Virus record (IMG/VR): IMGVR_UViG_646311923_000011
Reading direction: 5' to 3' (one strand)
DNA: 51,464 bases
Origin: a virus
Lineage: Duplodnaviria > Heunggongvirae > Uroviricota > Caudoviricetes
A program made the position numbers. This document shows positions 12,001 to 18,000 of the stretch, one piece after another (the stretch's first letter is position 1; the number at the start of each line of letters is the position of its first letter).

Positions 12001-15000
12001 GCATACTGACCCGCGACGACCATTTTGCGCAGGTCACCTTTATCTGCCGCCACTCATAAGGCGGCGTCCACAGAAAGGCTTTCCAGCCCCCGTGCTCTTC
12101 CAGAAACGACTCCAGTACCGTGGCCTCCTCACGGGGGACAGAAAGCGTCACGCTGTACGTTTTCAGGTTGGCATTCAGCCCGGCAGGCGCTCGCTGGGAA
12201 TAGCCATCACCAAAGCGCACCTTTCTTACAGAAGGGGCCGAAGCCACATCCATACCGGGTTTCACTTTCCAGCGGAAGGTTTTCATCGTCCACCTCCGGA
12301 GAACAGACCACCATCACGCATCTGCCCGGTCACAACATCCATTGCCGCCTTACGGGCTACGTCATAAACCGCCTTCAGCGCCTGTGGCCCTATCTGACCG
12401 TTCGTGCCGTCGTTGTTAATCACCACATGGTTATTCTGCTCAAACTTCCCGGACGCCTGCGACCGGCTGTCCGCCAGACTGCCCGGTGTACCGACATAAC
12501 CGCCGGTGGCATAGCCGCGCATCAGCCGGTAAAGATTCCCCACGCCAATCCGGCTGGTTGCCTCCTTCGTGAAGACAAACTCACCACGGTGAACAATCCC
12601 CGCTGGCTCATATTTGCCGCCGGTTCCCGTAAATCCTCCGGTCGCAAAATGGAATTTCGCCGCAGCTGCCTGAATGGCTGTACCGCCTGATGCGGATGCG
12701 CCGCCACCAACAGCCCCGCCAATGGCGCTACCGATACTCCCGACAATCCCCACCATTGCCTGCTTAAGCAGAATTTCTGTCATCATGGACAGCACGGAAC
12801 GGGTGAAGCTGCGCCAGTTCTGCTCACTGCCGGTCAGCATCGCCGCCATATTCTGCGCAATACCATCAAAGGTCTGCGTGGCAGCACTTTTAACCTGCGA
12901 CATACTGTCCGTGGCACTCTCTTTCCACTCGCTCCAGCCGGACTTCAGGCCTGCCATCCAGCTCCCGCGAAGCTGGTCTTCAGCCGCCCAGGTCTTTTTC
13001 TGCTCTGACATGACGTTATTCAGCGCCAGCGGATTATCGCCATACTGTTCCTTCAGGCGCTGTTCCGTGGCTTCCCGCGCTGCCTGCCGGTCAGTCAGCC
13101 CCCGGCTTTTCGCATCAATAGCTGCCCGTTTTGCCCGTTGTTGCTGTGCGAATTTATCCGCCTGCTGCGCCAGCGCATTCAGACGCTCCTGATACGTCAC
13201 CTTGTCGCCAAGTGCCGCCAGCTGGCGTTTGTACTCCAGCGTCTCGTCTTTATGCGCCAGCAGGGATTTCTCCTGTGCGGATAGCTGACGACGTTGTGCC
13301 ACCTCCTCCAGTACCGCGAACTGACTTTCTGCCTTCCACAAATCCCGGCGCTGCTGGCTGATTTTCTCATTCGCTCCGGCATGCTTCTCCAGCGTCCGGA
13401 GTTCTGCCTGAAGCGTCAGCAGGGCAGCATGAGCACTGTCTTCCTGGCGATCGCCTGCAGACACCTTCACGCCGGACTGTTTCGGCTTTTTCAGCGTCGC
13501 TTCATAATCCTTTTTCGCTGCCGCCATCAGCGTGTTGTAATCCGCCTGCAGGATTTTCCCGTCTTTCAGTGCCTTGTTCAGTTCTTCCTGACGGGCGGTA
13601 TATTTCTCCAGCGGCGTCTGCAGCCGTTCGTAAGCCTTCTGCGCCTCTTCGGTATATTTCAGCCGTGACGCTTCGGTATCGCTCTGCTGCTGCGCATTTT
13701 TGTCCTGTTGACTCTGCTGTTCAGCCTTCTTTCTGGCGGCTTCAAGCGCAAGACGGGCCTTTTCACGATCATCCCAGTAACGCGCCCGCGCTTCATCGTT
13801 AACAAAATAATCATCCTTGCGCAGATTCCAGATGTCGTCCGCTTTCTTAAACGCAGCCTCTGCCTTAATCAGCATCTCCTGAGCGGTATCAGGACGACCA
13901 GTATCCAGCACCGCATCCCACATGGATTTGAATGCCCGTGCTGTGCTGTCTGCCCAGGTCTCCAGCGTGCCCATGTTCTCTTTCAGGCGGCGGGTCTGGT
14001 CATCAAACCCTTTCGTTGCGGCCTCGTTCGCCGCCTGCAATGCCCCGGCTTCATCGCCGGAACGCTGCAACTGAGCAACATACGCAATCTGCTCCGCCGT
14101 CACGTTACGGAACTGGCGCGCCATCGCCATCAGCCCCGACGTCGGGTCGGTGGTCAGTTTTCCGAAAGCCTCTGCAACCTTGTCCACCTCCACACCGGAT
14201 GCAGAAGCAAAACGCGCGACACTCTGGTTGATGGCATCAAACTGTGCACCACCACGCACACCGACATTCACCAGGGCTGCCAGTGACTCACTCGCCTGGT
14301 TAAACGTCAGCCCTGCGGCCTGTCCGGCTCTGGAGAGCGTCAGCATGCGATCGGCAGTCAGTCCGGACTGATTACCGGAAAGAACCAGGGTTTTATTAAA
14401 CGCTGAAAGCGTGGAATCCCCCTGGTACCAGGCGTACGCCAGCGCACCTGTCGCCACCGCCAGCGAGGTGACCCCGACCATCGGCAGGGTGATCGTACCG
14501 GCAAGTCCCCTGAACATGGGGATCATCCCGCCGAAGGAGTCCTTCACCTGACCGCCCTGTTGCAGCAGGATCAGCCAGGGATTCTGACCACCGGCAAGCT
14601 GCGTGGCGATATCCGTAAACTGTGCGGGCAGGGTTCGCATGGCCGCTTTATACTGCCCGACGGAAATCCCGGCTTTTTGTGCAGCCAGCGCCTGACGACT
14701 CAGGTTCTGCTCAACGACACCGACGGTTTTTCTGGCGTCAGTCTCCAGTCCGGAAAAATGACGCCTTACCCGGCTCATCTGCTCATCGAAACGGACCGCA
14801 TCCAGACTCAGGTCAATAACAAGATCACCAACCGGCTGGGACATATCTCACACCTCCCGGAATCCCCGCTGAAGCCATCATTAATGCGACATCATCCTCG
14901 CTGACATCCGCCACATCCGCAGACGATAAAATCTCACGCCCTCCGTCCCCACCAAACCGTACGCCTCCGGCAAGTCCTGCCGCTTTCTGCATCAGCATTT

Positions 15001-18000
15001 TTTCCTCATCCGGCATCTCCGTCTGCGCTTTCTCACGCCGGGGGGCAAGCAGACTGAAATCAGAGGGATGCATATCCGGATCGCAAAAAAACAGGCTGAG
15101 TACGGCGTACGTCAGCCCGGAAAAATGCATATCCAGTTGGGTATCGTGAAAATAATGCGTACGGTAAAAATGTCGCCAGTCGGCATATTCGGTGGATGTC
15201 ATCCCGGCAAGCATGGCGCGCCAGTCAGGCCTCCCCATCTCACGCGCCAGTCTGAGGGCAAAATTCAGCTCGCCGTCGAAGACTTTCCCGCAGAAAAATC
15301 ATCATCAGTCAGCGCGTTATTTTTCGCCACTTCGGTAATATCCGTATCCACATGAACAGGCCCGCTCATCCCGGACAGACGCAACACCACATCTTCCGCC
15401 CGGGCAATGGCATCAGCAGGCCAGGTGGTGAGCACCTCCTGTTCGATCTGCATCACGGCCTCATTCATTGACGGTGATGCCGTTTTCTGCGGATGGTTAT
15501 GCCACAGGGACATCGCCACCAGAAACGCGCCGGTTCTGACGAGATCTTCCACGCTTACCTGCAGGTTGCCGCTGGATTCTGCCTGTTCTGCACGCCGTTT
15601 CAGGAGGGCAAGATGCTCAATACGCTGCAGCGCAGACAATTCGGAAAGCGTGACAGACACACCGTTATATTCAAATTGTTCTGTTTTCAGAAACATGTAT
15701 GACCTCCGTTTACCCTGCAGCGCCCGCTTCAGTAACGGTGACTTCAGCCACTGCGGCGAACTGACCATTTCCGCTCACCACAGGGATCTGCACCTTACCT
15801 GTCGCCACGCCGTTTACCGTAATTGTCATATCTTTCACACTAATGGTGGCTTTCGACGGATCGGTGGAAACCGCTCTGAACGTCTTGTCTGTTGCACTTT
15901 CCGGCTCAAAAGAAACCGTCAGGGTGGTTGTTTTCCCTTTTGCCACCGTACCGGATGTCGGCGTCACCTTAATCGCACTGACCGGCGTAATTTTGCTGCG
16001 TTCTTCCGCTACAGAAGGTTTACCCACGTTAGTGACTTTCACCGTGCGGGTGATCACTTCTTTCGCCGTCACGGCCTTACCGATACTGCTGACCCAGCCA
16101 CGGAACACATCCACCGTGCCGTTCGGGAAACGGATTTTATAGGCCCGCACATCCCCGCTTTCAAACCAGCCTATAAGCCCTTTCTGACCTTCTTCTCCCG
16201 GTTTCCAGGCCAGCGTAAAACTGGTATCTCCTGCAGACTTCTGCCCCTGCCCGGTCGCGCTCCAGTCCGCGTCTTCATCATCCAGGTAGTTATCATCGTA
16301 GGATTCTGCCGTCATCTCGCCCGGCGTCAGATCCTTCACCTTAGCCAGTCGCTGCCAGTCATCATCTGACAACGGGTTTGCATAAGCATCACCCTTGCCG
16401 GTGTAAACCCACAGAGTGGTACCGGCACCTTTTACCGGCGCCAGGGGATTTGGTGTTGGCATATCGTCCTCACATCTCGTATGTAATGGAATAAGTCAAA
16501 TCTGCAGAGCTCCATAACGCCATATCGTCATCACGACGATACTCATAGCCCTGCGTAACCATCGTGGTAATCAGTCCTGCCAGTGCCGGGATCGCGGTCA
16601 TCGCCGGGTAAATCCGGCTTTCCATCCACTGATCAAGCTCTGAATCCGGTACCTGTGCCGGTAAAAACACCTCAATATGCAGCGTGGCCCGCCAGGTATC
16701 TGCATCCAGCTCTTCACCGGTATACTCTGCATCCGTCAGATAAACCGCGATCGCAGGAAAATCCTCTTCGTCAAAAACAACGGGGCGACCATCAAACAGC
16801 GTCGCCCCGTGTTCATGCTGCTCGAGTGCATCCAGCACTGCGGCACGAATGTCAGTGTGTTTCATCGTTTTATTGCAATCCTCAGTTGTTGTTTCAGCGC
16901 GTATGCCAGTTCTTTAGGCAGGCGTTCACGCCGGATACGGTCAACATTCTCATCAAATGCCTGTTTCAGTGGGGCCGCCATCGGGATTTTCACCACATCA
17001 ATGGGGTAACGGTTTTTCCCGGCCACACGCTGCATGACATGCCAGCGACCATTTTTTAATCGCTGAATAAATGCCCGCTGATACCGATGCTGACCGGCTT
17101 TAAGTATGCTGTTCGGGCGACGCCCCGGCATCCTGATCCCCAGCTTAATCACAGGGAGATCACCGCGGTTAACGATAATTCTGGCATTCGGATTTCTGAC
17201 CGTCGCCCGTTTCAGTCTGGACCGTTCCTTAACCAGTTTCCGGCGAACCTTTGTCTCCCGGGCAACCTGTGATGAAGACTGATTAATCGCCGTTGTGGCC
17301 ACGCGGTTAATGGCCATTGCTGAAGCCGCCGGAATGGCGTTTTTACGAACCCGGCTCAGATTGTCAATCGCCTGATCAAGCCCTTTTATCGCCATAATTT
17401 CACCCTGCGTTTATCGTCGCCGGTTAACGGCGGGTGGTTGACCACGGTTGAGCCAGAGATAACAGCTGCCCCCGTCATCCGGAGAAACACGATCCACCCA
17501 GAATATCTCACCATTAATGGTCAGCGTGTCACCACGCCGCACGGCACGAACCGTATCCGTCCGCACAAATAATGACGGGCTGCTTCCTTCAATACGGACC
17601 CCGCCACCGGCAAACCCCAGCGACTCCGGATCGTCAAAAACCCCCTGAACTTCGCTGCCACACTGTGCCCCCGAGGTGAACTGCGCACAGAGCCCCATCA
17701 CTTCAACGATCGTACTGTCTACCCCGGCGAGGGCAGCATCAAAGGCATTCTGAAAATCACGCATATTCAGCCGTTCCGTGCTGTATCATGGCCGTTGCCA
17801 GTGATGATGGCACCAGAACACGCATACCCCGTAACGCCAGCTCAACGGGACGACCTGTCTCCGGGCAATACCCCATTACTTGCAGGCACTTCCGTACCCG
17901 GACGGCTTTAACATCATCCGGAGCATCCGTGTTGTTCAACTGCTCACCATCGTCTGTGTGATTTTGATCAGCCCCGCTCTCATCAGAGTGCATAATGCCC

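Follow-up and report, generated by a model that had tools for sequence, protein, structure and literature searches.

A conserved slip site that very probably directs lambda-type G/G-T frameshifting in a lambdoid prophage of Escherichia coli

Is the tail gene T of a lambda-like prophage read as an extension of gene G, by a programmed -1 frameshift on a slippery heptamer, or is it a gene with a start of its own? The question is raised by a locus in a Caudoviricetes virus, IMG/VR record IMGVR_UViG_646311923_000011, which was analysed as a single stretch of 51,464 nucleotides (nt); this whole stretch is referred to as the window and all positions are counted on it. The initial annotation had proposed a conserved lambda-type G/G-T -1 frameshift for this locus, and the proposal is backed by the family assignment, the synteny, the identity of the slip site and the comparative conservation that are described below. 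We consider it highly probable that the locus is a lambda-type G/G-T programmed -1 frameshift, most likely one that works exactly as in lambda. The tail genes of the window all lie on the minus strand, in the gene order V-G-T-H that is also found in lambda, and the elements that matter for the question are the following:

15710..16462, minus strand: V, the major tail tube gene (250 amino acids (aa); PF16461 Phage_TTP_12, E=3.7e-69, and Big_2), located directly upstream of G and used as synteny anchor
15703..15707, minus strand: GGAGG, the Shine-Dalgarno sequence of G as read from the sequence, with a 6-nt spacer to the ATG
15265..15696, minus strand: G, the tail assembly chaperone gene (143 aa; ATG 15696-15694, TGA 15267-15265), from open reading frame (ORF) and translation
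15299..15307, minus strand: TGA TGA TGA, which closes the -1 frame (frame analysis) and is the last closed stretch before the slip site
15283..15289, minus strand: the slippery heptamer G GGA AAG, in X XXY YYZ phase within the G frame and the same as that of lambda
14825..15283, minus strand: the T segment in the -1 frame, 152 codons after the slip followed by the stop TGA 14827-14825
15236..15238, minus strand: an in-frame ATG inside T, the T start in RefSeq/PGAP but probably no real initiation site
12283..14844, minus strand: H, the tape-measure gene (853 aa; ATG 14844-14842; PF06791 TMP_2 and PF09718 Tape_meas_lam_C)

The slippery site that had been annotated, GGGAAAG, is present, occurs as a single copy within G and lies in phase five codons ahead of the G stop, the intervening sense codons being TCT TCG ACG GCG AGC and the stop itself TGA. 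The -1 frame is open from 15298, three codons ahead of the heptamer, and the two frames are open together over 33 nt. The modelled G-T fusion is join(15696..15283, 15283..14825), in which base 15283 is read twice, and comprises 290 aa. The range that had been given for the locus, 14825-15696, coincides exactly with the T stop and the G start, the minus strand having been left unstated. The further claim that the -1 frame runs open through T up to the start of H needs a small correction: the frame is indeed open, as far as its stop at 14827-14825, but it overruns the H start, such that the 3' end of T and H overlap by 20 nt (8 nt in lambda). The H start codon is preceded by GGGAGG at 14858-14853.

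Both parts were assigned to their families. The G frame matched PF06894 Phage_TAC_2 (E=2.6e-49) and, over its full length, the NCBIfam equivalog TIGR01674 phage_lambda_G (166.4 bits, cutoff 74.45), whereas the -1 segment matched PF06223 Phage_tail_T (E=7e-13) and the equivalog TIGR01715 phage_lam_T (201 bits, cutoff 77.35), the latter with profile positions 1-110 of 111 aligned on the fusion. The protein identity to lambda is 76.6% for the G part and 75.7% for the T part. At the nucleotide level, the 1.1-kb region shares 99.5% identity with a prophage in E. coli O103:H2 strain 129 (NZ_AP038976) and 97.4% with a series of Shiga toxin (Stx) 2a-converting phages (LC7278xx). The identity of the module is therefore settled, by the curated equivalog matches together with the 99.5% DNA identity to annotated genomes. 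Among the modules of lambdoid prophages it is also a very common one: a match was found in 3,629 of the 5,426 complete E. coli genomes, at a median of two and up to 8 places per genome.

The presence of the slip site had originally been taken to confirm that the tail operon is intact. The slip site alone is no proof of that, yet a gene-by-gene Pfam check does show uninterrupted tail genes. Strong lambda-type matches without interrupting stops were obtained for Z, U, V, G/T, H, M, L, K, I, J, Lom and the tail fibre, most of them spanning nearly the whole family model; K carries JAB and NlpC/P60 and J (1159 aa) all gpJ domains. The genes FI and FII, just upstream, likewise show strong family matches and are uninterrupted. 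Judged by its sequence, the window is a lambdoid prophage of E. coli with uninterrupted tail genes and an undamaged recoding signal in the chaperone gene.

To what extent is the signal retained among relatives? The comparison comprised lambda and 12 further phages, with G identities between 28 and 94%, the diverse ones being recovered by tblastn against a phage collection, and in addition 80 close viral contigs, 79 of which could be evaluated. All 13 other phages possess a slip site ending in A AAG, located 0-5 codons before the G stop, and an open homologous -1 frame, which in each compared phage opens 25-85 nt before that stop. GGGAAAG itself, five codons before the G stop, is shared by the window, lambda, PhiR12_5, ev099, Turner and YDC107_1, and A AAA AAG is found at the equivalent position in two Stx phages (Stx1a, Stx2_95). 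The sites of N15, phi80, mEp043, mEp460, cdtI and the Providencia phage PSTCR8lys escaped a strict X XXY YYZ screen, and direct reading of their junctions revealed G GAA AAG, with a non-canonical P-site: five codons before the stop in N15, phi80 and mEp043, one codon before it in mEp460 and cdtI, and immediately before it in PSTCR8lys. The N15 record (AF064539) does annotate GGAAAAG as slippery sequence. In the evaluable close relatives GGGAAAG is kept at the equivalent position without exception (79/79). The invariant core thus appears to be an A-site codon, A AAG, that is located at the 3' end of G and has the T frame behind it. Compared to lambda, the block TTTCTGCGGGAAAGTnTTCGACGGnGAGCTGA is conserved and the approximately 70 nt upstream of it have diverged.

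A scan of genome contigs proved useless for this comparison because the matches consisted mostly of exact lambda sequence in unrelated genera. The lambda G-T region was recovered, 839/839 nt identical, in assemblies labelled Chromatiales, Neobacillus, Pseudomonas (two), Oceanobacillus, Kitasatospora, Chromatium and Shewanella; three of these lambda-bearing contigs measure some 48.4-48.5 kb and several record names give a coverage near 1x. This looks like control or spike-in contamination.

On the lambda-type model, ribosomes would initiate on the ATG of G (15696, minus strand) and the majority would read G GGA AAG in frame and stop five codons on, yielding gpG of 143 aa. A few per cent would slip by -1, the P-site tRNA-Gly re-pairing from GGA to GGG and the A-site tRNA-Lys(UUU) from AAG to AAA, and would then read 152 codons in the -1 frame to give gpG-T of 290 aa. 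By analogy with lambda, the G part that is common to both products would bind the tape-measure protein H, the T part would recruit the tail-tube protein V, the constant slip rate would set the high ratio of G to G-T on which tail assembly depends, and both products would leave the finished tail. We infer the occurrence of the shift, its efficiency and the protein interactions from lambda, for which the details are documented. The lambda site is GGGAAAG (PMC3296357, Table 1), the 0 frame is kept in about 96% of the cases and the mnm5s2U34 modification of tRNA-Lys modulates the shift (PMC3296357). Both G and G-T, the latter at a few per cent of G, are needed for tail assembly and are absent from virions (PMC5009743, PMC3296357). 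The passages of PMC5009743 that cite Levin 1993 and Xu 2004/2013/2014 put the G:G-T ratio at about 30:1, call it essential for tail assembly, and have G bind H and T bind V.

Does the site depend on RNA stimulators? The downstream region gave little indication of one, as the fold of the 100 nt past the site is weak in the window (z = -1.74) and in lambda (z = -1.55). The z-scores of the first 60 nt downstream (+0.69) and of the 58 nt upstream (+0.14) were positive, and in a consensus fold of 11 divergent sequences the main hairpin starts only from about 34 nt past the site, with a covariation term of 0.03. The fold that window and lambda share downstream was rejected as a stimulator on account of its weak z-scores and lack of covariation; the likeness follows from the conservation of the T coding sequence. 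Ahead of the heptamer no GGAGG- or AGGA-like motif is found in CTGACTGATGATGATTTTTCTGC. Neither of the two elements that characterise stimulator-dependent sites of the dnaX or IS3 type, a conserved hairpin or pseudoknot some 5-9 nt downstream and a Shine-Dalgarno-like element some 10-14 nt upstream, was thus recovered around this heptamer. We conclude that the site probably acts as a bare slippery heptamer, which fits the low efficiency reported for lambda.

Alternatively, T might be translated on its own from the ATG at 15238, as a protein of 137 aa, with the heptamer being incidental. There is indeed such an ATG in frame (15238-15236), it is common to lambda, and it serves as the start of a stand-alone T in RefSeq as well as in several GenBank phage records, so that the statement in the initial annotation that T has no start codon is not literally correct. 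Its functional point nevertheless holds. The 22 nt upstream of the ATG (TGCCCTCAGACTGGCGCGTGAG; CTGGCGCGTGAG) contain no Shine-Dalgarno sequence at usable spacing, in contrast to G with its GGAGG and H with its GGGAGG, and also unlike a truly independent ORF elsewhere in the window (ATG 43545), which shows AAGGAG 8 nt upstream. The methionine is a phenylalanine in six of 11 relatives (N15, phi80, mEp043, mEp460, cdtI and the Providencia phage). Moreover, the 15 residues that separate this methionine from the slip site (VFDGELNFALRLARE) are conserved at the protein level across the family (ELxFxxxLARE), and they fall within the T model: position 1 of TIGR01715 aligns at residue 143 of the fusion and positions 1-11 cover the stretch upstream of the ATG, whereas the ATG-started protein aligns only to positions 12-110. 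The -1 frame would therefore be under selection from the slip site onwards, given that the conservation of T and the T model both set in there rather than at the internal ATG. Lambda T, finally, arises as a G-T fusion by frameshifting according to those parts of PMC5009743 and PMC3296357 that cite Levin 1993. The T frame thus appears to be without initiation signals of its own, and we regard its independent translation as very improbable. Still harder to credit is that the heptamer is there by chance, or that G-T results from transcriptional slippage. It is true that the window shows no enrichment of GGGAAAG, with 8 copies where shuffles predict 7.1, and the raw count is therefore uninformative, which is why phase, position and conservation were used as evidence. 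Likewise, in-phase X XXY YYZ heptamers occur in the long ORFs of the window at 0.41% per codon, near the expected 1/256, although the underlying gene set was crude, as it took in some antisense ORFs and a spurious ORF at 15407-16369 (plus strand) in place of G, and serves as a rate estimate only. The overlap of the two open frames, however, offers no more than nine in-phase positions, for which by our own arithmetic the chance of any canonical heptamer is about 3.6% and that of the X XXA AAG class (5 of 13,728 positions) about 0.3%; and the site is kept in every relative examined. Its non-randomness appears to lie in this position, in the long homologous -1 extension and in this retention. Homopolymer tracts that support slippage of RNA polymerase are far longer than three A, and transcriptional slippage was rejected since the run at this site counts merely three A residues. 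A general treatment of transcriptional slippage can be found in PMC5009743.

A different kind of doubt concerns present activity. The locus could be a relic, inherited not long ago, in a prophage that is defective and cannot be induced, where the sequence is intact and the frameshift has no current function in the host. We consider this unlikely, although two 100% identical, inverted copies of a 1312-nt insertion sequence (IS) of the IS3 family do lie in the early/integration region, such prophages are present at the multiple places per E. coli genome noted above, and among the close relatives the -1 frame ends early at a stop in two cases and runs off the contig end in four more. The genes from Z to the tail fibre, FI and FII are uninterrupted, no damage is seen in G, T or the slip site, and the relic scenario would bear on present activity only, leaving the identity of the element unchanged. 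What does weigh against a frameshift that operates here as in lambda can be listed together: frameshifting and its rate are deduced for this locus by homology; the prophage may be defective, given the two IS3-family copies in its non-structural part, in which case the site is perhaps unused at present; RefSeq annotates T as an independent coding sequence (CDS); and the roughly 70 nt upstream of the site are unlike those of lambda, so that the efficiency could be somewhat different.

No other in-phase heptamer in a credible gene of the window leads into a long homologous -1 extension, apart from one apparent exception, GGGAAAA at 43515-43521. This heptamer lies six codons ahead of the stop of a helix-turn-helix (HTH) domain gene (42847-43539) and has an 82-codon open -1 frame behind it. 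It was rejected as a second frameshift site because the -1 ORF has an ATG of its own (43545) and the Shine-Dalgarno sequence mentioned above. The stretch 43545-43745 (plus strand) is thus an ordinary downstream gene.

The comparison with close relatives also provided information on the history of the locus. Over the 1.1-kb region there are six substitutions with respect to the nearest complete genome (O103:H2 strain 129), and all of them fall within 30 nt shortly upstream of the site (15321-15350), in the variable C-terminal linker of G, with none in the slip site or in T. Such clustering points to recombination over a small patch and not to scattered point mutation. A mosaic boundary at the slip site is seen relative to the Stx1a phage Stx1_1649, where the identity is about 98% over V and the initial ~40 nt of G, drops to 28-62% in the body of G (15296-15656, minus strand), recovers to 88-97% at about the slip site and remains high across T; the corresponding protein identities are 47.8% for the G part and 83.6% for the T part. 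G up to the slip site looks like an exchangeable cassette. A possible, albeit doubtful, extension of this observation is that the conserved slip-site block of ~35 nt doubles as a recombination anchor, with G cassettes being exchanged between lambdoid phages irrespective of V and T. If the junction recurs, the recoding signal would limit where mosaic boundaries fall, and different G alleles could tune the frameshift rate via the upstream or nascent-peptide context. Even then, it would amount to a modest refinement of the well-known mosaicism of lambdoid phages.

Some further elements of the window are of relevance for its interpretation as a prophage:

44350-45661 and 47264-48575, inverted relative to each other: the two IS3-family insertion sequences, with 1602 nt between them
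32944-33193, minus strand: three tRNA genes (Arg-tct, Arg-tcg and one with anticodon CAT, called Met)
49438-50751, plus strand: a tyrosine integrase gene (Arm-DNA-bind_2 and Phage_integrase), near the right end of the window

Each IS copy contains orfA (108 aa, HTH_Tnp_1) and orfB (295 aa, rve) in a -1 relationship. The orfA/orfB junction reads TGG AAA AAA TAA TG, the ATG of orfB overlapping the orfA stop by one base, and this pair is likely a second and different kind of -1 frameshift in the window. Recombination between the two copies could invert the intervening segment. A DNA methylase gene (33234-34292) lies just upstream of the tRNA cluster and a sialate O-acetylesterase-like gene (30016-31737; SASA and DUF6645) downstream of it, a layout that resembles the late-regulatory region of Stx-type lambdoid phages. 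The ORF list for the interval of the tRNA cluster holds no ORF of the size of a Shiga-toxin A-subunit, whereby no stx-specific test was made. The location of the integrase gene suggests that the right end of the window is near a boundary or attachment site of the prophage.

The main import of these findings concerns the quality of annotation, and there is little beyond. RefSeq/PGAP and most GenBank phage records give T as a stand-alone CDS from the internal start and not as a join() of G and T with ribosomal slippage; among the records inspected, only that of N15 marks the slippery sequence. The 290-aa fusion is consequently missing from the protein databases that were built on those records. 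A correct annotation of the isoforms is of some downstream use because the chaperone has an N-terminal core, common to G and G-T, that is reported to be a target of the bacterial immune sensor Avs17 (2026 preprint, PMC12803255). An intact recoding signal and intact tail genes are furthermore a minimal requirement for functional tails, and prophages of this kind in pathogenic E. coli can mobilise virulence genes.

How does the locus then compare to known systems? The gpG/gpGT -1 frameshift has reportedly been described by Levin, Hendrix and Casjens in 1993 and by Xu, Hendrix and Duda in 2004, 2013 and 2014. Lambda (NC_001416: G 9711-10133, T frame 10115-10549) has the identical G GGA AAG and the same five codons to the G stop, and it shares with the window the V-G-T-H order, the G and T families, a near-identical 3' flank and the lack of a supported RNA stimulator. 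The differences are limited: G encodes 143 aa in the window and 140 aa in lambda, with a diverged C-terminal linker in the window; the -1 frame opens 9 nt before the site instead of 39 nt; and T counts 152 codons against 144, with an internal insertion of ~8 residues and a C-terminus that is 4 residues longer, the latter extension accounting for the longer T/H overlap. The E. coli prophages and Stx-converting phages (O103:H2 strain 129, the Stx2a phages, PhiR12_5) are identical to the window in G length, heptamer and T length. N15 (gp14/gp15), phi80, mEp043, mEp460, cdtI and PSTCR8lys have the same architecture, with A AAG at the 3' end of G and a homologous T frame, but differ from the window in having G GAA AAG, a site 5, 1 or 0 codons before the stop and a T of 112-115 codons. 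A more distant resemblance exists to E. coli dnaX (A AAA AAG) and to orfA/orfB of the IS3 family, where a tandem -1 slippage with tRNA-Lys on A AAG likewise yields two products at a fixed ratio. The dnaX and IS3-type sites depend on a Shine-Dalgarno-like element located upstream, on a hairpin or pseudoknot located downstream, or on both, and their efficiencies are much higher, whereas in the window the fold is weak (z = -1.7), starts too far off and is without covariation, and the upstream motif is lacking. The G/G-T frameshift of this locus is already known, an ordinary textbook case of the lambda type.

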